From a virus (lineage: Duplodnaviria > Heunggongvirae > Uroviricota > Caudoviricetes), in IMG/VR virus record IMGVR_UViG_2778261693_000009: a DNA stretch of 13,613 nt; one strand, written 5' to 3'. The translations under genes and the position numbers were made by a program. A model generated the notes under the pieces. That model made no database searches and was not told the DNA's origin. It saw nothing but the letters and a program-made list of their open reading frames with translations. This document shows positions 1,009 to 13,613 of this stretch, in pieces. Numbering within the stretch: the stretch's first letter is position 1; the number at the start of each line of letters is the position of its first letter.

Positions 1009-1081
1009 GTCCTCTTAGTTAAATGGATATAACGAGCCCCTCCTAAGGGCTAATTGCAGGTTCGATTCCTGCAGGGGACAC
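1009..1081 (+). tRNA. argW: tRNA-Arg, anticodon CCU (argW-type); 3' CCA not fully encoded
   Basis: Cloverleaf folded by hand: acceptor stem 1009..1015 pairs with 1073..1079 (one G-U pair); D-stem 1018..1021 with 1030..1033; anticodon stem 1035..1039 with 1047..1051; anticodon loop 1040..1046 (CTCCTAA, anticodon CCT at 1042..1044); T-stem 1056..1060 with 1068..1072; T-loop TTCGATT. Discriminator A at 1080 is followed by C-T-T rather than C-C-A. Confidence 0.9.
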
Positions 1082-1107
1082 TTTAAAGACCTTTCTCTAC
1101 ATTTCAC

Positions 1108-1187
1108 TTCATTACATAACCACTTAAAAAACAGTAAGTTATCACCGAATCGGCCTGATTTTCATTTCAGTTAATTTCATGACATTA
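1108..1187 (+). promoter_or_regulatory. int upstream region carrying two sequence boxes that recur upstream of alpA (candidate shared regulator or Int arm-type sites)
   Basis: Box 1 TTCATTACATAAC at 1108..1120 is identical to 3528..3540. Box 2 TAATTTCATGACATTA at 1172..1187 is identical to 3549..3564 (19 of 20 matches when the preceding cag is included). Confidence 0.4.
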
Positions 1188-1266
1188 CAACCTCGTGATG
1201 GTATAAGTGATGGTATTCCCCAGTTCGATATGCAGATACCATCAATTTACCAAAATGAGTACAGAT

Positions 1267-2541
1267 ATGGCCATTAATGTGCTTTCCCCCAAACAGATAG
1301 AAAACGCCAAGCCGAAGACCAATGATTACAAACTTACCGATGGAGGGAGTTTGTATCTACTGGTACGAAAGACTGGTGGAAAATACTGGCGTATGAATTA
1401 TCGTTTTGATGGAAAACAAGTGACATTGGCATTAGGGGTCTACCCAGATGTCTCACTTGCAACAGCGCGGAAACGGCGTGATGAAGCCAGGCAACTACTA
1501 GCCGATGGTCGTGATCCTCGCGAAGCAAAGAAACCCAAAAAGGAAGACCCAATTTCCCCCACGTTCGAGAGTGTTGCCAGAGAGTGGCATAGTGGAACGA
1601 TGGGGCATCCTGAGTGGAAAGAGATCACCCGTAAAAAAATTCTCCGAGAAATGGAAAACCACCTCTTTCCTGCCATCGGTTCAAAGCCTATCGATACGCT
1701 CAAAACCCGTGACTTGATGCCGATGCTGGTTGAGATGACTGAGAAAGGAATTGGTGCCACAACGAGCCGGGTAAAAACCACTATGACGAGCATCTTCCGT
1801 TATGCCGTGCAACGTGGAATTGTCGATTACAACCCTGCCCACGATCTAAAAGGTGCAATTACGACCCCCAAAGTACGACATCGCCCCGCACTACCTCTCG
1901 AACGTTTACCTGAACTGTTAGCGAAAACGAGAAGTTACACGGGAAGACCATTGACTCGCCTAGCAGTTCTATTTTCCCTGCACACTTTTGTGCGATCCAG
2001 CGAACTACGACATGCCAGATGGGAGGAGATCGACATTGAAAATGGGCTATGGACGATACCAGGACAACGTGAAGAGATCGCAGGGGTTAAATTCTCAGAG
2101 CGGGGTGCAAAGATGGGGGCTGCTCATTATGTCCCGCTATCTAGTCAGGCTATCGGGGTACTGGAGGATATAAGGAAAATCAGTGGTGAATATCTGCTGG
2201 TTTTCCCCGGTGACAGCAACCCATATAAACCGATGAGCGAAAACACAGTTAATAAAGCACTGCGAACGATGGGTTACGACACTCAAAGTGATGTTTGCTT
2301 GCATGGGTTCAGGGCGATGGCCTGCTCTGCACTGACCGAATCAGGACTCTGGTCACGCGATGCAGTTGAACGGCAGATGAGTCACCAAGAAAGAAACGAA
2401 GTGCGGGCAGCATATGTGCATCTTGCGCAGCACATGCAGGAACGCCGCAGAATGATGCAATGGTGGTCTAATTATCTGGAACTAAATAAGGACGAATTTC
2501 ATGCTCCTTATGACTTATCAGGTATTAACATTATCAATTAA
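1267..2541 (+). CDS. P4-type site-specific tyrosine integrase (N-terminal Arm-type DNA-binding domain plus C-terminal catalytic domain)
   Basis: Lies immediately downstream of the tRNA. N-terminus MAINVLSPKQIENAKP...DGGSLYLLVRKTGGKYWRMNYRFDGKQVTLALGVYPDVSLATARKRRDEAR is typical of P4-like integrase arm-binding domains. C-terminal region contains HGFRAMA and RAAYVH (candidate catalytic His/Arg/Tyr) and the tail RRRMMQWW seen in argW-targeting IntS-like integrases. Start is ambiguous: in-frame ATGs at 1207, 1255 and 1267, none with a strong SD. Confidence 0.85.
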   Translation: MAINVLSPKQIENAKPKTNDYKLTDGGSLYLLVRKTGGKYWRMNYRFDGKQVTLALGVYPDVSLATARKRRDEARQLLADGRDPREAKKPKKEDPISPTFESVAREWHSGTMGHPEWKEITRKKILREMENHLFPAIGSKPIDTLKTRDLMPMLVEMTEKGIGATTSRVKTTMTSIFRYAVQRGIVDYNPAHDLKGAITTPKVRHRPALPLERLPELLAKTRSYTGRPLTRLAVLFSLHTFVRSSELRHARWEEIDIENGLWTIPGQREEIAGVKFSERGAKMGAAHYVPLSSQAIGVLEDIRKISGEYLLVFPGDSNPYKPMSENTVNKALRTMGYDTQSDVCLHGFRAMACSALTESGLWSRDAVERQMSHQERNEVRAAYVHLAQHMQERRRMMQWWSNYLELNKDEFHAPYDLSGINIIN

Positions 2542-3453: not shown

Positions 3454-3519
3454 ACTGAAACAATCTACAGGTAGAGTTGATTACACTACCTTCACAGCAT
3501 TTTGATATCCCCATAGTAT

Positions 3520-3547
3520 CTGCCGTGTTCATTACATAACACGGCAG
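3520..3547 (+). promoter_or_regulatory. Perfect 10-bp inverted repeat (CTGCCGTGTT / AACACGGCAG) with an 8-nt spacer, just upstream of alpA
   Basis: Left arm 3520..3529, right arm 3538..3547. The repeat encloses box 1 (TTCATTACATAAC) and its right arm overlaps the weak SD region of alpA (ATG at 3556). No T-run follows, so it is more likely an operator or translational-control hairpin than a terminator. Confidence 0.4.
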
Positions 3548-3555
3548 GTAATTTC

Positions 3556-3771
3556 ATGACATTAAAAACTTATCCTATCACTGGACATGCCCGCCCACGA
3601 GCTACTGCTGACTTTTTGCAAATAAGTACGGTTACTCTCTGGCGCTGGGAAAAGAACAATCCTGAATTTCCCAAATCTATACGCATTTCAAAACGGGTAT
3701 CTGTTTACGATGCACAAGAAATTAGGCAGTGGGTTAAAGCTCAATCAGCAGGATTGGAGGAAGTAGTGTAA
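3556..3771 (+). CDS. alpA: AlpA-family (prophage CP4-57 regulator-like) small DNA-binding regulator/excisionase-type protein
   Basis: 71-aa protein containing FLQISTVTLWRWEKNNPEFPKSIRISKRVSVYDAQEIRQWV, which fits the AlpA/Xis-type winged-helix pattern. Located between int and the replication module as in P4-like elements. Confidence 0.75.
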   Translation: MTLKTYPITGHARPRATADFLQISTVTLWRWEKNNPEFPKSIRISKRVSVYDAQEIRQWVKAQSAGLEEVV

Positions 3772-3790
3772 TGACAATATTAACAAAGCT

Positions 3791-3820: not shown

Positions 3821-4015
3821 TCAATTCTTTGGTTCTAAACCTCGGCTTTGTAACTCTTTGCGTAGAATGCGCTTGATCCAAGCCGCTAGCGATTCATCGC
3901 CATCCTGCTGTTGTGCTTGTTCCATCAGTTCACGCAGTTCAGGGTCAAGTCGGAACTGGAATGGCGGATTCCCACGTCTTTCATTTTTGTGTGTTGACAC
4001 GTCAATTACACCCAT
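3821..4015 (-). CDS. Ribbon-helix-helix (Arc/MetJ-like) small DNA-binding protein, candidate repressor
   Basis: 64-aa protein; FQFRLDPELRELMEQAQQ...SLAAWIKRILRKEL fits a beta-strand then two helices (RHH fold). Transcribed divergently from the replication operon. Weak or absent SD. Confidence 0.55.
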   Translation of the reverse strand: MGVIDVSTHKNERRGNPPFQFRLDPELRELMEQAQQQDGDESLAAWIKRILRKELQSRGLEPKN

Positions 4016-4021: not shown

Positions 4022-4049
4022 GTATTTATGTGTAATGACACATTACACA
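4003..4049. promoter_or_regulatory. Operator-like cluster of TGTAATG / CATTACA half-sites
   Basis: TGTAATG at 4016..4022 and 4031..4037, inverted CATTACA at 4041..4047, and related AATTACA at 4004..4010; all overlap the candidate promoter between the RHH gene and the rightward operon. Confidence 0.4.
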
Positions 4050-4976: not shown

Positions 4977-5356
4977 ACCAGCCGCAGGTTTCCATTTTCC
5001 CGGCAGAAATGACCACCGCGCTTTACCGGCGGGCTATTGCTTCAGCATGGCGGCAGAAAATGCTGAACGAAACTGGCAATGATCAGTATGGTCCGCACAG
5101 CCTGACGGTGGAGCGTATTGAAATGGCCATTGCGCTGCATATCGAGTGCGCACTGATTAACGAGTACGGCGAAGCACAGGGCGCCGCTGCCGCGCTGGCA
5201 CTGCTGACTGACATGCTGGAGCCGTCACTGCTGACCGCGCCGCCGGTACTGACCGCGCGCGGTTGTGAAGTAATGGCGGAGATGTACCGCACGCTTCCGG
5301 CGGCCTTTGATGTCTGCTGCAGTACCGGTGTGACGTTGTATCAGGGGGAAGTATGA
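4973..5356 (+). CDS. Hypothetical protein (127 aa), translationally coupled to the primase gene
   Basis: ATG at 4973 with SD GGAGG; its stop overlaps the primase start (ATGA at 5353..5356). Confidence 0.5.
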   Translation: MNQPQVSIFPAEMTTALYRRAIASAWRQKMLNETGNDQYGPHSLTVERIEMAIALHIECALINEYGEAQGAAAALALLTDMLEPSLLTAPPVLTARGCEVMAEMYRTLPAAFDVCCSTGVTLYQGEV

Positions 5357-8025
5357 CAATACAGACGGTTACGCAGATTTCAGCCGCCGCGCGGGGGAAA
5401 TGGCCCGTTATTCTGCAGATGCTGCGTATTGATGTACCTGAAAACGGCAGGCACGGTCCCTGCCCGAAATGTGGGGGCAAGGATCGTTTTCGCCTTGATG
5501 ACCTTGACGGGCGCGGGACGTGGATCTGCAGCCAGTGTGGCAATGGTGACGGTCTGGATCTGGTTAAGCTCGTAACCGGTTACAGCGTCAGAAAGGCTGC
5601 GCAGGAGGTGGCGCAGGTGCTTAATGTGCCGGATGTGCAGGAACTGCCTGTTAAGCCTGCCAGACAAAAAGCCCCTAAACGCGACATGGGTCTTACCGTG
5701 GCGGCGCTGATGAAAGAGAGCCACACGGGAGAAAGCGCCTATCTGACAGGAAAAGGGTTCGCCGGATACCCGGCCTCTCTGACCGGAAGCGTGCAGCATA
5801 TCAGCGGTAAGGATTTTCCTGCCGGTTCCCTGCTGTTACCACTCACGACCAACACCGGAGCCGTGACCGGTGCACAGCTTATCGCCCCGACGGGTGAAAA
5901 AAGCATACTGCCCGGCAGCACGATGAAAGGCGCGTTTGTGTCGCTCAGCCCGTTACCGTCTGAACCACCGGTACAGGTGGTGATTACCGAAGGTTACGCT
6001 ACGGCGCTGACGGTAAGCCAGCTCACTGCCGGATGCGTAGTGGCTGCCATATCTGCGGGCAACCTGCCCAATGTGGCGCAGTCGCTGCGGGCACGCTGGC
6101 CTGAGGTAAAAATTATCATCGCCGGTGATAACGATTTTCAGGATGGGGGGGAGAATCCCGGCAGAGCCTTTGCTGAACGGGCGGCAAAAGTTGTTGGCGG
6201 CTGGATGACGCTGCCACCAGGAGAGATTAAGGCTGACTGGAATGACTTTCATCGGGAGCACGGTATTACCCGTGCCCGTGAAGCCTTTCGCAACGGTCTG
6301 GTACTGTGCGGGGAAGGCCGCACGCAACTGCCGCACGGGTTCCGTCTTACCCAGGAATATCTCTGGTATGAAAAGCAGGTACAGCGCAACGGTGAGACGG
6401 AGATCCAGAACGTCAAAATATGCAGCCCGCTGCGCGTGACGGCAATCACCTGCGATGCCGATGGCGGTAACTTCGGACGACTGCTGGAATGGGAAGATAC
6501 GTGGGGTGAGCGTCGCCGCTGGGCGATGCCGATGGAAATGCTGAGCGGCAGTGGTGAGGAACTGCGCCGGGTACTGCTGGTTAACGGGCTGTCTTATATC
6601 AGCACTACCGGTGAGGCACGCGCACGCCTGATGGAATATATCTCACTGTGTAAACCGGAACGCCGCGTGACCTGCGTCAGCCGTACTGGCTGGCATGGTC
6701 AGGTTTACGTCCTGCAGGATGAGGTCAGCGGTGAAGGTGCAGAGGGTGTCATTCTCCAGACCACTTCCGTGCAGGGGCGTGATTTCCGCGTGTCGGGCAC
6801 AACAGAGGAATGGCGGGAGAACGTATCCCGCTACTGTACCGGCAACTCTCGCGTGGCATTTGCTGTCAGCCTGGCCTTTGCTGCACCACTGTTACGGCTG
6901 GTTGGTATGGACGGCGGCGGCTACCACCTCAAAGGGGAATCGACAGACGGTAAGACCACCACCATGAAAGCGGCAACCTCCGTCTGCGGCGGGCCTGACT
7001 ACTGGCAGACATGGCGGGCCACCGGCAACGCGCTGGAGGGATGCGCCAGCCGCCGCAACGATGCCGCCATGATGCTTGATGAGATCCGGGAAGTTGACGG
7101 ACGCGAGGCAGGCAATATCGCCTACATGCTGGCAAACGGTCAGGGCAAGGGCCGTGCCGGTACGGACGGTGAGCTGCGTACCCGTAAGCAGTGGCGCCTG
7201 TTGTTCTTTTCAACTGGCGAGTTGTCTCTGACCGAACATGCGGCAAAGGCCGGTGAGCGTACTTTTGCCGGGATGGAAGTCAGGATGATCCAGATCCCCA
7301 GCGATTCCGGGAAATTTGGCGTTTTTGAGGAGCTGCACGGCTTCGACAGCGGCAAGGCTCTGGCAGAGCATCTTGAATGGGCCACGTCCTGCTACTACGG
7401 TTCGCCGTTCCGGGAGTGGCTAAAAGCACTGACCGCTGATCTTAACGGACTAACGGCACAGGCAAAATCGCTGATGAAGGAATATGCTGCCGCCCTGACT
7501 CCGAAAGATGCAGGCAACCAGGTGGGCCGGGCTGTGAATCGCTTTGCACTGGTGGCGATGGCGGGTGAACTGGCAACCCGTCTGGGTATCACCGGCTGGC
7601 CTGAGGGTGAAGCACTGCGGGCAACCCGCGTCTGCCTGAACGCATGGCTGAAAGATCGCGGGCACACCGCCAATCAGGAAGATATTGCCGCACTGGAGCA
7701 GGTTCGCAGTTTCTTTACCGCGAATCAGTACAGCCGCTTTGCAGACTGGTATGACGAGCGCAACCGCCCCGGCAATATGGTGGGCTGGCGCAGGGTGGAG
7801 AAAGGCAGTACCGCGCAGGGCACGGAAGCTGTCACTACGTTCTATGTCATGCCGTCCGGCTGGAAAGAAATCTGCAGGGGATTTGACCCGCGCAAGGTGG
7901 CGCGTCTGTGCGCAGATCGTGGATACCTGCTGCCCTCCACTGATGGCAAACTCCAGACAACCATTCGCCCGCCAGAGATGAATCCCCGCAGGCTCTATGT
8001 CTTCAACAGCGAGGTGCCGGGTTAA
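5353..8025 (+). CDS. P4 alpha-like bifunctional DNA primase-helicase (zinc ribbon, TOPRIM, D5/SF3-type P-loop NTPase)
   Basis: 890-aa ORF with SD GGGGGAAG. Zinc ribbon C37-P-K-C40 ... C59-S-Q-C62. TOPRIM-like ITEGY (nt about 5984..6001) and AGDNDF (nt about 6121..6138). Walker A GESTDGKT (nt about 6934..6960) and Walker B MMLDEI (nt about 7066..7083). Confidence 0.9.
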   Translation: MTIQTVTQISAAARGKWPVILQMLRIDVPENGRHGPCPKCGGKDRFRLDDLDGRGTWICSQCGNGDGLDLVKLVTGYSVRKAAQEVAQVLNVPDVQELPVKPARQKAPKRDMGLTVAALMKESHTGESAYLTGKGFAGYPASLTGSVQHISGKDFPAGSLLLPLTTNTGAVTGAQLIAPTGEKSILPGSTMKGAFVSLSPLPSEPPVQVVITEGYATALTVSQLTAGCVVAAISAGNLPNVAQSLRARWPEVKIIIAGDNDFQDGGENPGRAFAERAAKVVGGWMTLPPGEIKADWNDFHREHGITRAREAFRNGLVLCGEGRTQLPHGFRLTQEYLWYEKQVQRNGETEIQNVKICSPLRVTAITCDADGGNFGRLLEWEDTWGERRRWAMPMEMLSGSGEELRRVLLVNGLSYISTTGEARARLMEYISLCKPERRVTCVSRTGWHGQVYVLQDEVSGEGAEGVILQTTSVQGRDFRVSGTTEEWRENVSRYCTGNSRVAFAVSLAFAAPLLRLVGMDGGGYHLKGESTDGKTTTMKAATSVCGGPDYWQTWRATGNALEGCASRRNDAAMMLDEIREVDGREAGNIAYMLANGQGKGRAGTDGELRTRKQWRLLFFSTGELSLTEHAAKAGERTFAGMEVRMIQIPSDSGKFGVFEELHGFDSGKALAEHLEWATSCYYGSPFREWLKALTADLNGLTAQAKSLMKEYAAALTPKDAGNQVGRAVNRFALVAMAGELATRLGITGWPEGEALRATRVCLNAWLKDRGHTANQEDIAALEQVRSFFTANQYSRFADWYDERNRPGNMVGWRRVEKGSTAQGTEAVTTFYVMPSGWKEICRGFDPRKVARLCADRGYLLPSTDGKLQTTIRPPEMNPRRLYVFNSEVPG

Positions 8026-8052: not shown

Positions 8053-8247
8053 GGTAACAGGTGAAACAGGTGAAACAACCGTATTTTACAGGGCTGAACC
8101 TGTTCCACCTTCTGAAATAGTGAGGTGGAACAGATGTAACGCCAGCCAATCCGCTGTTCCACCTTGTTACCCGCGATGTTCCACCGGTGCAGTGTATATA
8201 AGTGCTTTATAAAACAAAGCTGTAACACATGTTTCACCTGTTCCACC
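8053..8247. repeat. Iteron cluster; candidate replication origin (P4 ori/crr-like) bound by the alpha protein
   Basis: Nine-mer TGTT(C/T)CACC in both orientations: GGTGAAACA at 8060..8068 and 8069..8077 (tandem, period 9, preceded by degenerate GGTAACA); TGTTCCACC at 8101..8109, 8155..8163, 8177..8185, 8239..8247; inverse GGTGGAACA at 8124..8132; TGTTTCACC at 8230..8238. An AT-rich stretch at 8191..8226 lies between clusters. Non-coding and immediately downstream of the primase-helicase gene. Confidence 0.7.
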
Positions 8248-8335
8248 GCATCAGGGACATAAAGCAGACTGAAACTGAGGGCATTTTTATCTGGCTGGCT
8301 TTCATAGCCACGTCTGAATAACCGCAAGCGCCCGT

Positions 8336-9169: not shown

Positions 9170-9717
9170 CGGCCCGAGGCACGCCTGACCAGGCACTTAC
9201 CAGTTTTCGGAATGCCCGTATTCTGTGGGCCGGACATAGTGAGAGCCGAAAAGCCGTTGAACAACAGATAGCATCTCTCCTCGCTGCCACAGAAAAACCA
9301 GCAGATTATGCCCGACAGCTCGAATTACTGCGGGAACGTCTGGATGTGCTGAAATGGCAAATTAACTGTGCTGCGCGCGAATGCATTTACTCGCAGCATT
9401 TACTGATGGAAGCCTGCACAGAAGCCGCTCTCAGCAATTTTATGCAGGCGAATGGGGCAGCCCTGACATCTGCACTGGCTCCGTTCCTGAAGGGGCGCGG
9501 GGGGGTTGACGTTGCGTCCCGTATATTACGCAGTGCTCTGGTTCGCCAGCTGACAATAACACCGCCTGAAATTGCCGGGGATTATCGTGAGATCCTGGAT
9601 GAATCCGGTTTGATGCCTGACCCCGGGATGATTCGTGATTGCCAGGGCTCTTACACCCCGGCACAACATCTGCGTTTTCAGCAACGCCTGAATGACATTA
9701 ACGATATACAGGAGTGA
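9166..9717 (+). CDS. Psu-like protein (polarity suppression / capsid decoration family); from size and remembered motifs
   Basis: 183 aa (P4 Psu is about 190 aa). Start overlaps the upstream stop (ATGA). Contains KWQINCAARECIY and FMQANGAALTSALAP, which resemble my recollection of P4 Psu. Shares the local motif FMQxxGxAL with the upstream 247-aa protein. Confidence 0.45.
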   Translation: MTARGTPDQALTSFRNARILWAGHSESRKAVEQQIASLLAATEKPADYARQLELLRERLDVLKWQINCAARECIYSQHLLMEACTEAALSNFMQANGAALTSALAPFLKGRGGVDVASRILRSALVRQLTITPPEIAGDYREILDESGLMPDPGMIRDCQGSYTPAQHLRFQQRLNDINDIQE

Positions 9718-9792: not shown

Positions 9793-9796
9793 TTAA
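9793..9796. repeat. IS5 target-site duplication, left copy (TTAA)
   Basis: TTAA immediately precedes the left IS5 inverted repeat. Confidence 0.8.
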
Positions 9797-10991
<1,195 letters not shown>

Positions 10992-10995
10992 TTAA
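10992..10995. repeat. IS5 target-site duplication, right copy (TTAA)
   Basis: TTAA immediately follows the right IS5 inverted repeat. Confidence 0.8.
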
Positions 10996-11621: not shown

Positions 11622-13613
11622 ATGGCCATTCAAAAAAAACAAACAAAAAATTCTGAAAGAAGTATTAAAAGCCAGTTAGAAAAACTTACGGCTGAAAAAG
11701 CCATTTCCGAATATATTTGGAATGCTTTTGATGCTGAAGCCACAAATATTAATATTACAGTTATCCCAAATGGTTTAAGTGGGATATCTTCAATAGAAAT
11801 TATTGATGATGGAACTGGCATCGATTTTAATGAAGTCGATGAAACTTTCGGGCAGTTTTTAGATTCCAAGAAGAAAGCAAAACGAACGCCTGTCACAAGA
11901 GGACATAAAGGTAAGGGGCGGTTTTCATTCTGTAAATTCGCTGATAAAGCCGAATGGACTAGCTGGCGTAATGGAGAGAAATTTACGCTAACTATAGTTT
12001 CATCACATCTAAATGAATATGAGCATTCAGATTTATCCATGTGCTCTCATAAAAATTCTGGAACTAAGGTGGTCTTTAATCCTGTAACAATTACTGAAGA
12101 TTATTTTAATTCAATAGTTATACCCTATTTGCAGAACGATATATCTTGGCTGTTGGTGGCCAAACCAAAATTAAAATTAAAAATAAACGGTCAATCTATT
12201 AGCCCAATAGGATATGCTTCAACTTCAAATAATATTGAATTTGGAGAGGTCGATTTTAATTCAAAAACAGTTATATGGTCTAGTAAACCTGTAGTAGAAA
12301 AATCATATATATATTATTTAAATAATCAAGGTGATATTGTTTACAAAGAGTTTTCTGAGATGAACAAAAAAGGATTTGATTGTTCATCCTATGTCACATC
12401 AAGTTGGTTTGATGATTTTTCTGAATCAAACGACTTGTTTAATGAATCGAAAAACAGTGTTGACTCAGATATTTTTAAATACATTAGCCTACATGTTAAA
12501 GGTAATTTAAGGGAAGAGTATAGAAAATATAAAAATAATGCAGCAGATCAACTCATTCAAAACTATTTAAATGAGGGTGTGTTTCCAGAATATAAAGGTG
12601 AGAATAGAATGCTCAATGAATTTAAAAGGAATCAACTCATTGAAACTATAAAGATAATTTATGAGGCCGAACCTCAAATTTTCTCCACACTAAACAAGAA
12701 ACAAAAAAAAATCTTAATTAAACTATTAGATAGAATTGTTGAAACCAATAATTTATCCAGTCTCTTTGACATTTTTGAAGGTATAGTTTCCCTATCCGAA
12801 GATGAGGTTGATAAACTTTCATCTGTAATAAAAAGAAGTTCACTTTCTAATATTACGAGGACTTTGTCATTTATTAATGATAGACTGGATGTTATTGATT
12901 ATTTTAAAAAAATACTATATGAGAAAAAGAAAGAATCATATGAAGTAAAGCACATTCAAAAGAGCATAGAAAATAATTTATGGCTTTTTGGAGAGCAATA
13001 CACTCTAGTTGCATCAGAAGATGATAAGTTTGATAAAGCTCTTAGAAAGTATCTGGAGAAGACTAAAGGTTTTAACGAAGCACATTATAATAAGTATAGT
13101 GTACAGCATCCAGATAAAAATAAAGAAATGGATATATTTGCAGCACAAAAAATAAAGCGTTACACTGAAAATAATGAAGAATATTTTCATTGCATTGTGA
13201 TTGAATTAAAGAAACCAAGTATAAAACTCGGTGATGAAGAACTCGCACAAATAAAGTTATATAAAAATATAATATCTGCGACTGATGAATTTAAAGACGA
13301 TAATACAAAATGGGATTTTATTTTAGTGGGAAATGATATATCTAATAGCAATATCACTGCTGCAAATTTATCATCAGATCTAGAAACGAATAAAATACAT
13401 GGTGAGTTTGGCTTGGTTCAAAAAACAACAAATATGAAAATTTACGTCAAAACGTGGAAGCAAATTTTAAATGAGTATGATCTTAGATATAACGACCTGA
13501 TCGATAAGCTTAAGTTGAAAGAGTTAGAAATTGCAGAAGATATGGGGCCTGATGAACTCACGGCAAAAATTTTAGAAAAAACGGCAAGACTTCCGACTTC
13601 GATACAGGCTTAG
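11622..13613 (+). CDS. GHKL-family (Bergerat-fold) ATPase with a C-terminal PD-(D/E)xK-like putative nuclease region; AT-rich cargo gene and candidate anti-phage factor
   Basis: 663-aa complete ORF whose stop codon is the last three bases of the window. Weak SD GGGA 5 nt upstream. N-terminal motifs: E30-x3-N34-x2-D37-A38 (EYIWNAFDA), D62-D-G64-T-G66 (G1 box), G94-x2-G97-x-G99-R-F (G2-like). C-terminal motifs: D504 (EMDIF) ... E528-L-K530 (IVIELKK) ... Q543. Very AT-rich by eye (about 30 percent GC), unlike the satellite core. Confidence 0.75.
   Translation: MAIQKKQTKNSERSIKSQLEKLTAEKAISEYIWNAFDAEATNINITVIPNGLSGISSIEIIDDGTGIDFNEVDETFGQFLDSKKKAKRTPVTRGHKGKGRFSFCKFADKAEWTSWRNGEKFTLTIVSSHLNEYEHSDLSMCSHKNSGTKVVFNPVTITEDYFNSIVIPYLQNDISWLLVAKPKLKLKINGQSISPIGYASTSNNIEFGEVDFNSKTVIWSSKPVVEKSYIYYLNNQGDIVYKEFSEMNKKGFDCSSYVTSSWFDDFSESNDLFNESKNSVDSDIFKYISLHVKGNLREEYRKYKNNAADQLIQNYLNEGVFPEYKGENRMLNEFKRNQLIETIKIIYEAEPQIFSTLNKKQKKILIKLLDRIVETNNLSSLFDIFEGIVSLSEDEVDKLSSVIKRSSLSNITRTLSFINDRLDVIDYFKKILYEKKKESYEVKHIQKSIENNLWLFGEQYTLVASEDDKFDKALRKYLEKTKGFNEAHYNKYSVQHPDKNKEMDIFAAQKIKRYTENNEEYFHCIVIELKKPSIKLGDEELAQIKLYKNIISATDEFKDDNTKWDFILVGNDISNSNITAANLSSDLETNKIHGEFGLVQKTTNMKIYVKTWKQILNEYDLRYNDLIDKLKLKELEIAEDMGPDELTAKILEKTARLPTSIQA

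Follow-up and report, generated by a model that had tools for sequence, protein, structure and literature searches.

The window analysed in this study is a stretch of 13,613 nucleotides that reads, from the left, through yfdC (1-933) and argW into a mobile element. The tRNA-Arg(CCU) gene argW was located at 1009..1081 on the plus strand by ARAGORN and Rfam, and its last 21 bases (1061-1081, plus strand; TTCGATTCCTGCAGGGGACAC) constitute the att core. An intact copy of the element in another strain, locus L001, carries the same 21-mer at its right end (22703-22723), and this repeat defines attL, whose core lies in argW, and attR. In many host-only genomes the match to the window is exact as far as position 1081. 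The host part of the window was matched by 5,426 of 5,426 complete E. coli genomes, and the element was present in only 63.

Next to attL lies int (1267..2541, plus strand), which encodes a P4-type tyrosine integrase of 424 aa according to Pfam and to the RefSeq annotation of an identical gene; the protein carries the domains Arm-DNA-bind_3, Phage_int_M and Phage_integrase (PF13356, PF22022, PF00589). A gene for a 293-aa protein of unknown function separates int from alpA (3556..3771, plus strand), which encodes a 71-aa winged-helix protein of the Vis/AlpA family (PF05930). The names int and alpA had been assigned in an earlier sequence-only reading of this DNA, and Pfam domains confirm both. 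Downstream we found a gene for an Arc-like ribbon-helix-helix (RHH) protein on the strand opposite to alpA (3821-4015), a gene for an Icd-like protein, a primase gene with TOPRIM and DUF927 domains (5353-8025), genes for two Psu-like proteins and an ogr/delta-type gene, which in the window's copy is split by IS5 and is followed by a cargo gene. The element is a P4-like phage satellite integrated at argW: a P4-type integrase at a tRNA gene, alpA/vis, a primase-helicase, psu and ogr/delta were all found. Its gene order, int-orf-alpA-RHH-icd-primase-psu-psu-delta, is unlike that of P4, and its TOPRIM+DUF927 primase is not of the P4 alpha type.

Two short sequences upstream of int are repeated upstream of alpA. 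Box 1, TTCATTACATAAC, is an exact direct repeat (1108-1120 and 3528-3540), and so is box 2, TAATTTCATGACATTA (1172-1187 and 3549-3564). The sequence-only reading had described both as exact copies that stand in the same order before the two genes, with spacings of 64 and 21 bp, and we could confirm each of these coordinates and, measured from start to start, both spacings. Alignment of the two regions, which it had proposed as a check, extended the match around box 2 to 23 of 26 identical bases (1168-1193 versus 3545-3570), with no similarity in the flanks beyond this block. Moreover, boxes 1 and 2 are versions of one 12-mer, TTCATKACATWA, of which there are four direct copies, two in attL (at 1108 and 1176) and two in the alpA leader (at 3528 and 3553), and no further exact copy in the whole window. 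The 12-mers are spaced by 68 bp at int and by 25 bp at alpA, so that the copies themselves are not one helical turn apart.

We then estimated how often such repeats arise by chance, using dinucleotide shuffles of the window. The exact 13-mer repeat is not significant alone: the shuffles contained on average 1.6 repeats of at least 13 bases, and the real window holds four other, unrelated 13-mer repeats. Of the shuffles, 1.7% contained a 16-mer repeat, and 1.3% contained two collinear repeats of 12 or more bases each, lying within 100 nt. The longest word common to the two upstream regions is 16 nt long, compared with a null mean of 6.8 and a null maximum of 13. The 23/26 identity exceeds what a protein-binding site needs and may stem from gene conversion, which is possible between the two copies in the window's own lineage.

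The int-side boxes are located between the att core and the Int arm-type sites, in the P' arm of attL, at +26 and +94 from the end of the core, with arm repeats from +114. No box lies beside attR, as judged from the attR arm of L001, the intact copy. Each int-side box is part of a cluster of TTCA-type direct repeats on the plus strand. Cluster A (1092..1120), with repeats at 1103 and 1108 and a degenerate TTTC at 1092, contains box 1; cluster B (1161..1189), with TTCA repeats at 1161, 1166 and 1176, contains box 2. TTCA occurs five times in the 113 nt of the attL arm, an enrichment with P = 0.0035, and in 29 distinct relatives 100 of 138 TTCA intervals measured 5 or 10 bp, in two clusters, with this register seen in every lineage; the full 12-mers lie 68 bp apart. 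Direct repeats about one helical turn apart are a hallmark of the sites of recombination directionality factors (RDFs) (PMC7498355). The 14-mer TTCATGACATTACA at 1176-1189 is nearly invariant among the relatives.

The binding sites of the integrase itself can be told apart from these clusters. The sequence GTGATGGTAT stands in tandem with a 12-bp period at 1195-1204 and 1207-1216 (plus strand), and an inverted copy, ATACCATCA, adjoins int at 1236-1244; an invariant GTTCGAT (1225-1231) lies between the tandem and the inverted repeats. Two more tandem copies of GTGATGGTAT are found about 60 bp to the left of the attR core in the intact element L001, and in a relative, L015, all three copies of the attL arm are changed together, to TGCGGGTAT / ATACCCGCA. 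Their presence on both arms and their joint change in L015 identify these repeats as the Int arm-type sites. Box 2 is unchanged in L015 despite the altered arm sites.

A putative int promoter, Pint, could be read from the sequence of the plus strand at 1179..1207, with ATGACA as the -35 element (1179-1184), a 17-bp spacer and TATAAG as the -10 element (1202-1207). The predicted -35 element would thus lie inside box 2 and the -10 element at the junction of the tandem arm repeats. The -10 element was absent from the output of a promoter scan because in the window's lineage it is without the usual final T. The spacing of 17 bp between ATGACA and a TAT-type hexamer is kept in all lineages inspected, and much of the invariance of int-side box 2 could be due to promoter function. 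The sequence-only reading had placed an ATG at 1178 in this box, opening an out-of-frame ORF of 31 codons. The ORF is indeed out of frame with int, but its ATG is at 1179-1181 and it has 32 codons (1179-1277), overlapping the int start codon (1267). It is open in nearly all lineages; we nevertheless judged it non-coding, since it has no Shine-Dalgarno sequence, its frame is variable and it is truncated in L007.

To follow these features through evolution, we assembled a set of 45 related loci, drawn from E. coli and other Enterobacteriaceae as well as from viral contigs and metagenomes. Every relative that reaches the left end is inserted at tRNA-Arg(CCU), and their integrases are 74-100% identical to that of the window. 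Alignment of the region from the tRNA gene to int in 15 diverged relatives revealed as invariant blocks the core, several TTCA repeats, TTCATGACA.T.CA (box 2), the arm repeats and GTTCGATA. The position of int-side box 1 is only moderately conserved (consensus TCAyyaCr..AAC); in the L016 group the box reads GTCATTACACAA. In 14 representative loci, the density of matches to TTCATKACATWA with at most two mismatches was about 110-fold higher within the two regulatory regions than outside them, a figure that measures conservation and not independent recurrence, since these loci are related.

Identity between the two sides is distributed differently. The longest word found on both sides measures 16 nt in loci of the window type, 14 nt in L004 and L038, 12 nt in L040 and 10 nt in L024, and long exact sharing is limited to lineages with the window-type (MTLKT-type) 5' end of alpA. 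The two sides of relatives with 59-70% identical AlpA share no word longer than expected by chance, and what they have in common is limited to a degenerate core (ATTACA / TTCAT). A search for the boxes in related satellites, another check that had been suggested, returned a nearly invariant int-side box 2 but a long two-sided identity in one lineage only. We also considered apparent co-variation in box 1, which has ACATAA in the window and ACACAA in L040 on both sides; this is weak evidence, since the recombinant L040 has an int side that is ancestral to a different lineage. The Pantoea locus L009 was uninformative because it has no integrase nearby. In another satellite at argW, L002, the arm sites are different and the boxes are absent.

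On the alpA side, a promoter scan predicted a plus-strand promoter at 3491..3519 (TTCACA, 17-bp spacer, TAGTAT). At least three unrelated promoter modules stand upstream of alpA among the relatives, all of which join exactly at the base of a hairpin, and as read from the alignment, a -10-like hexamer with A at position 2 and T at position 6 abuts the 5' arm of this hairpin in most of the modules, as TAGTAT does in the window. The hairpin (3517..3550, plus strand) has a predicted 13-bp stem, in which 3517-3529 pairs with 3538-3550, and its 8-nt loop, CAUUACAU, corresponds to the centre of the alpA-side box 1. That box, TTCATTACATAAC (3528..3540, plus strand), forms the top of the hairpin, while the alpA-side box 2 (3545..3570, plus strand; core TAATTTCATGACATTA at 3549-3564) spreads over the spacer, the ATG and codons 2-5. 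The start codon at 3556 falls within 3549-3564, in agreement with the earlier statement that box 2 contains the ATG at alpA. The Shine-Dalgarno sequence of alpA, AGG (3546-3548), is inside the 3' arm.

Several observations indicate that the hairpin is conserved as a structure. The 76-nt segment that includes it (3510-3585) has a folding energy of -21.3 kcal/mol with z = -4.8. Among 16 distinct relatives, 91.7% of stem cells were paired, compared with 25-48% when the partners were slid; three pairs showed compensatory changes, and one-sided changes mostly produced G-U pairs (7/8 cells). Relatives carry five different stem versions with the same fold, and the different stems of distant lineages still pair with ...GCAGG. 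Thus, comparison of the sequences supports, by covariation, a conserved hairpin predicted to sequester the alpA Shine-Dalgarno sequence. A search of the window against Rfam at gathering and permissive thresholds returned nothing but the tRNA, no terminator or known RNA family was found, and a further scan of viral contigs for hairpin variants yielded no additional contigs. The loops of the relatives read TTCATTACGTTA in L008, TTCATGACGTTA in L030, TTAATTACATAA in L024 and TTGATTACACAA in L010, L015 and L045, and the alpA side of both L008 and L030 contains ATTTCAT[AT]GACA. The N terminus of AlpA varies by lineage (MTLKT, MITQP, MTIKN and others), and the DNA that encodes it stays box-like.

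The arrangement resembles that of the IS10 and IS50 transposase genes, in which an inverted repeat hides the ribosome-binding site of any transcript begun upstream (fold-back inhibition), and in which the gene's own start site may fall inside the 5' arm. The sequestration of a Shine-Dalgarno sequence by an inverted repeat is the same here, whereas the gene concerned encodes a satellite regulator and not a transposase. By analogy, we infer that the alpA leader may follow the logic of fold-back inhibition: if alpA transcription starts inside the 5' arm, only transcripts from its own promoter could be translated, and those reading through from int could not.

We next considered which protein might recognize the boxes. 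AlpA scores above the PF05930 gathering threshold, as do P4 Vis and the AlpA of CP4-57, and its PHROG label is 'excisionase and transcriptional regulator'. It has a sequence match to the GIsul2 excisionase (8c3t), and its structural model (pLDDT 75) has BldC, 8c3t, RdfS and Pukovnik Xis as nearest folds, with TM scores of 0.6-0.8 normalized to target length. Among the proteins of the element, an excisionase-type fold was seen in AlpA only. The putative recognition helix of AlpA, VTLWRW, shows no variation among the relatives, and in this it resembles box 2. Together, family and model predict AlpA to be an RDF and a regulator.

The Arc-like RHH protein, which had also been put forward as a candidate binder, has a different and palindromic candidate operator of its own, GTGTAATGacaCATTACAC (4029-4047), overlapping predicted divergent promoters. 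The boxes are direct repeats, and they persist where the RHH protein is another one or is missing: L004 has a different RHH protein and a different palindrome, ATGGTAATTACCAT, yet the same alpA-side boxes, and L006 and L010, which lack an RHH gene, retain both box 2 and the loop motif. The string CATTACA was examined as a common core (7 observed versus 2 expected) and was not used as evidence, because it is a mixture of RHH half-sites and boxes.

The explanation that we favor, with somewhat better than even confidence, is that the boxes are binding sites of an AlpA/Vis-type RDF that would serve excision and control of int at attL and autoregulation at alpA. A common regulator of both genes was among the readings offered earlier, and it is the one best supported by the sequences, in that diverged relatives have members of the motif family at both places. 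It also agrees with the position of the int-side copies, which is that of the Vis boxes of P4, and with the presence of a gene for a Vis/AlpA-family protein; AlpA as the binder, the sign of regulation and both promoters are what we infer from such comparisons. Further points in favor of AlpA sites are that a single motif has all four of its copies in two regulatory regions and that the boxes occupy one att arm only.

In this model, AlpA would recognize the motif of about 12 bp, TTCATKACATWA. At attL, the two boxes lie within two TTCA clusters whose repeats fall on the same helical face; AlpA bound to them would bend the arm and assist Int in assembling the excisive complex. Since box 2 overlaps the predicted -35 element of Pint, AlpA bound there would also set int transcription, probably by repression as in the case of Vis in P4 and TorI in KplE1. 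At alpA, the copies are situated just downstream of the predicted promoter, and bound AlpA could feed back on its own synthesis; we lean slightly toward negative autoregulation.

The data could also be explained without any common regulator. Box 2 would then be the -35 and upstream part of Pint, the alpA-side copies would reflect constraints on RNA and start codon, and their likeness would be due to convergence or to chance in AT-rich DNA. This agrees with the retention of ATGACA and a TAT-type hexamer at 17 bp in the lineages inspected, with the coincidence of the alpA-side boxes with the hairpin loop and the translation initiation region, and with the finding that the two sides of distant relatives share no word above chance length. 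However, fourteen invariant bases are more than a -35 element requires, box 1 has no promoter reading, and a promoter does not account for the phased TTCA arrays; in addition, chance seldom produces a 16-mer or a collinear pair, and the 12-mer family is present in the independently diverged loops of L008 (TTCATTACGTTA) and L030 (TTCATGACGTTA). We regard this explanation as unlikely. Less probable still is that the long identity is functionless and is the trace of a gene conversion or a duplication that involved the attL arm and the 5' end of alpA, in line with the earlier suggestion of a scar from a duplicated alpA 5' region. Matches of 13/13 and 23/26 do go beyond the need of a binding site and are lineage-restricted, box 1 on the alpA side of the window, when set against long-loop relatives, appears to have arisen by a 9-bp deletion, and modules around alpA have visibly been swapped among lineages. 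What speaks against such a scar is that int-side box 2 is ancestral and nearly invariant whatever the 5' end of alpA, that relatives of the alpA-side boxes occur in distant lineages (L008, L030), that similarity stops at the edges of the 26-nt block, and that two short blocks with different spacers are a misfit to a single duplication event.

An action of the boxes at the RNA level, together with or instead of their action as DNA, appears improbable. The hairpin would be a translational safety catch on the switch that induces the satellite, and an antisense RNA from attL, if the copies there are transcribed leftward, would kiss the loop and cover the start codon. In the more specific form, to which we give slightly less credence, a leftward attL transcript complementary to the box 1 loop and the box 2 ribosome-binding site would block alpA translation, loosely like the CI RNA immunity of P4. 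The hairpin is real and has box 1 in its loop, the potential pairing over 13 nt and 23/26 nt is typical of antisense control, and a minus-strand promoter-like site lies inside int (1426-1397). Yet that site is a match to the consensus only, the complementarity is not conserved in distant relatives, neither a terminator nor a known RNA family was found, and the native mRNA would not present the loop if alpA transcription starts inside the 5' arm. The least probable proposal makes the boxes sites of the integrase or of the RHH repressor. Int has an arm-binding domain, and CATTACA in the boxes resembles a half-site of the RHH palindrome GTGTAATGacaCATTACAC, but the genuine arm sites are GTGATGGTAT, which lie on both arms and co-vary with Int, and the boxes, absent from the attR arm, do neither; the idea that they are arm-type sites was thus rejected. 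The reading as an RHH operator was rejected as well, since it fits no better with L004, where another RHH protein and palindrome accompany the same alpA-side boxes, or with L006 and L010, which keep box 2 without an RHH gene.

The assignment of the boxes to AlpA can be compared with systems in which the small protein has been studied. P4 Vis (ORF88), which has sites in attP and at the late promoters, binds attP DNA in electrophoretic mobility shift and footprint assays, acts as an excisionase (PMC2603039) and is needed for excision, it represses Pint (PMC7286903), and according to the title of Polo et al. 1996, as cited in PMC6092414, it regulates the promoter of its own operon. Vis belongs to PF05930 like AlpA, and the arm of P4 has the same order as that of the window: core, box, box, tandem arm repeats with a 12-bp period, inverted arm repeat and int ATG. 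Cali et al. are said to have placed Vis, in 2004, on 'two boxes between int and the core'. Measured from the core, the paired boxes are at +26/+94 in the window, +23/+97 in P4 and +35/+99 in CP4-57, and the two-plus-one arm repeats with a 12-bp period occur in all three, so close an agreement that the layouts correspond nearly base for base. The int promoter of P4 has the same layout, with TTGAAA followed by CATAAT between the arm repeats, and phased short repeats are found at the corresponding two places (TCC, four plus four copies, mostly spaced by 10 bp). The motif itself is different, being TCC-based in P4 and TTCA/TTCATKACAT in the window. The extent of the similarity also differs: the window's alpA-side copies are long exact duplicates that include the start codon, whereas the P4 vis leader has in common with the attP boxes only words of about 6-7 nt; exact words shared in P4 measure 6-8 nt.

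Other relatives of AlpA delimit how general this arrangement is. The excisionase of CP4So is AlpA, which triggers excision (PMC5148205), while the AlpA of the PICI EcCICFT073 activates its own promoter and does not control int (PMC6092414). CP4-57 resembles the window in AlpA family, int-orf-alpA order and attL geometry, and no shared boxes were found upstream of its alpA. Taken together with the AlpA of EcCICFT073, this indicates that siting at both places is not a rule of the family. In KplE1 (CPS-53), attL overlaps Pint, and int is controlled by both Int and the RDF (PMC2951348). Its IntS/TorI module uses the same argW site as the window's satellite, but KplE1 is an unrelated prophage with another integrase lineage and another RDF, TorI, and no duplicated sites have been described at its RDF gene. 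Apl of phage 186 and Cox of P2 are each one small protein that acts as excisionase and regulator through direct repeats at att and in a promoter region (PMC7498355), and they are alike in this respect to what we propose for AlpA. The Apl sites are arrays of 5-7 repeats spaced by 10-11 bp at both places and lie between face-to-face promoters, whereas the window has two boxes on the promoter side, at a distance of 25 bp from each other and located downstream of the predicted promoter.

The dual-site arrangement is already known from phage P4, and the phased TTCA arrays and the alpA leader hairpin are the most useful new details. If AlpA binds the boxes, they would provide a sequence motif for the AlpA-type proteins of P4-like satellites, for which we found none in the searchable literature, and the locus would be a compact example of one small protein that couples excision, the supply of integrase and its own level. 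If the attL copies were transcribed leftward and the boxes acted at the RNA level, the state of attL would be coupled to AlpA synthesis. The predicted hairpin that sequesters the Shine-Dalgarno sequence would add a second, post-transcriptional layer of control to a gene that is thought to trigger satellite induction. The picture of the P4-type recombination module is left unchanged by these results and is extended to a widespread lineage of argW satellites of Enterobacteriaceae.

The upstream region of alpA, the Vis/AlpA-family gene, carries at least three unrelated promoter modules across the lineages compared (window, ~3518; relatives L004, L010, L012, L016 and L008). The junction of every one of these modules lies at the base of a leader hairpin (~3518 in the window). 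This hairpin (3517-3550) is conserved and sequesters the Shine-Dalgarno AGG (3546-3548); its stem occurs in five different versions among the relatives, and compensatory changes are present. The 5' arm of the hairpin is abutted by a -10-like hexamer, an arrangement that suggests fold-back inhibition of read-through transcripts. The L010-type module contains two GTAAGCTTAC palindromes, which are absent from the rest of the locus.

A palindrome of another kind, GTGTAATGacaCATTACAC, was located at 4029-4047, between the gene for the Arc-like RHH protein and the icd-like gene, where it overlaps both predicted divergent promoters. Associated positions in the window are 3479-3486 and 3766-3773. The relative L004 encodes a different RHH protein and has the palindrome ATGGTAATTACCAT (associated L004 positions, 5008-5019 and 4433). 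Both in the window lineage and in L004, the region upstream of alpA holds a half-site of that lineage's own palindrome, so that the RHH protein may repress alpA as well.

On the int side, the attL arm (1092-1180) displays in every relative two clusters of TTCA repeats in a 5/10-bp register. In phage P4 (L003, 3966-4077), the same two places are occupied by TCC, four times in each, mostly with a 10-bp spacing. Between the direct and the inverted Int arm repeats, the heptamer GTTCGAT (1225-1231) is invariant in all relatives and identical to GTTCGAT of the tRNA/core region (1060-1066); an unrelated argW satellite (L002) has a similar sequence, AGTTCGAT. The heptamer at 1225-1231 may belong to the int leader or be a core-like site for Int. 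Box 2, the second of the repeats shared by int and alpA, contains an ATG that opens a small ORF (1179-1277); nearly all lineages keep this ORF open, with a length of 18 to 48 codons, and in L012, L013, L014 and L048 it is in frame with int. Since the ORF lacks a Shine-Dalgarno sequence and its frame is not constant among the lineages compared, it is probably not coding.

Elsewhere in the window, iteron-like repeats AACAGGTGAAACAGGTGAAACA and their inverted copies TGTTTCACCTGTT occupy the interval that separates the primase gene from the psu genes (8056-8250); these repeats may represent a late-promoter region or an origin. The end of the second psu gene contains, at 9692-9700, one more copy of ATGACATTA, the third, which is embedded in TGAATGACATTA and lies 31 nt ahead of the start codon of delta (9723); by chance, any given 9-mer would be expected about 0.1 times. 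The ogr/delta-type gene, which is intact in L001, the intact copy of the element, is split in the window by an IS5-like insertion (9793-10995) with 20-bp inverted ends that are 95% complementary and a DDE transposase on the minus strand (9943-10959).

In E. coli EC974 (L005, 1638-2111), the satellite int comes after torI of a KplE1-type prophage and not after the tRNA, suggesting that argW is occupied there in tandem by prophage and satellite. A cargo ORF (11622-13613; >663 amino acids, continuing past the window end) encodes a GHKL-type ATPase domain and has a weak HSDR_N-like match. In L001 this place is taken by other cargo, which is what a defence hotspot of a satellite would be expected to show.
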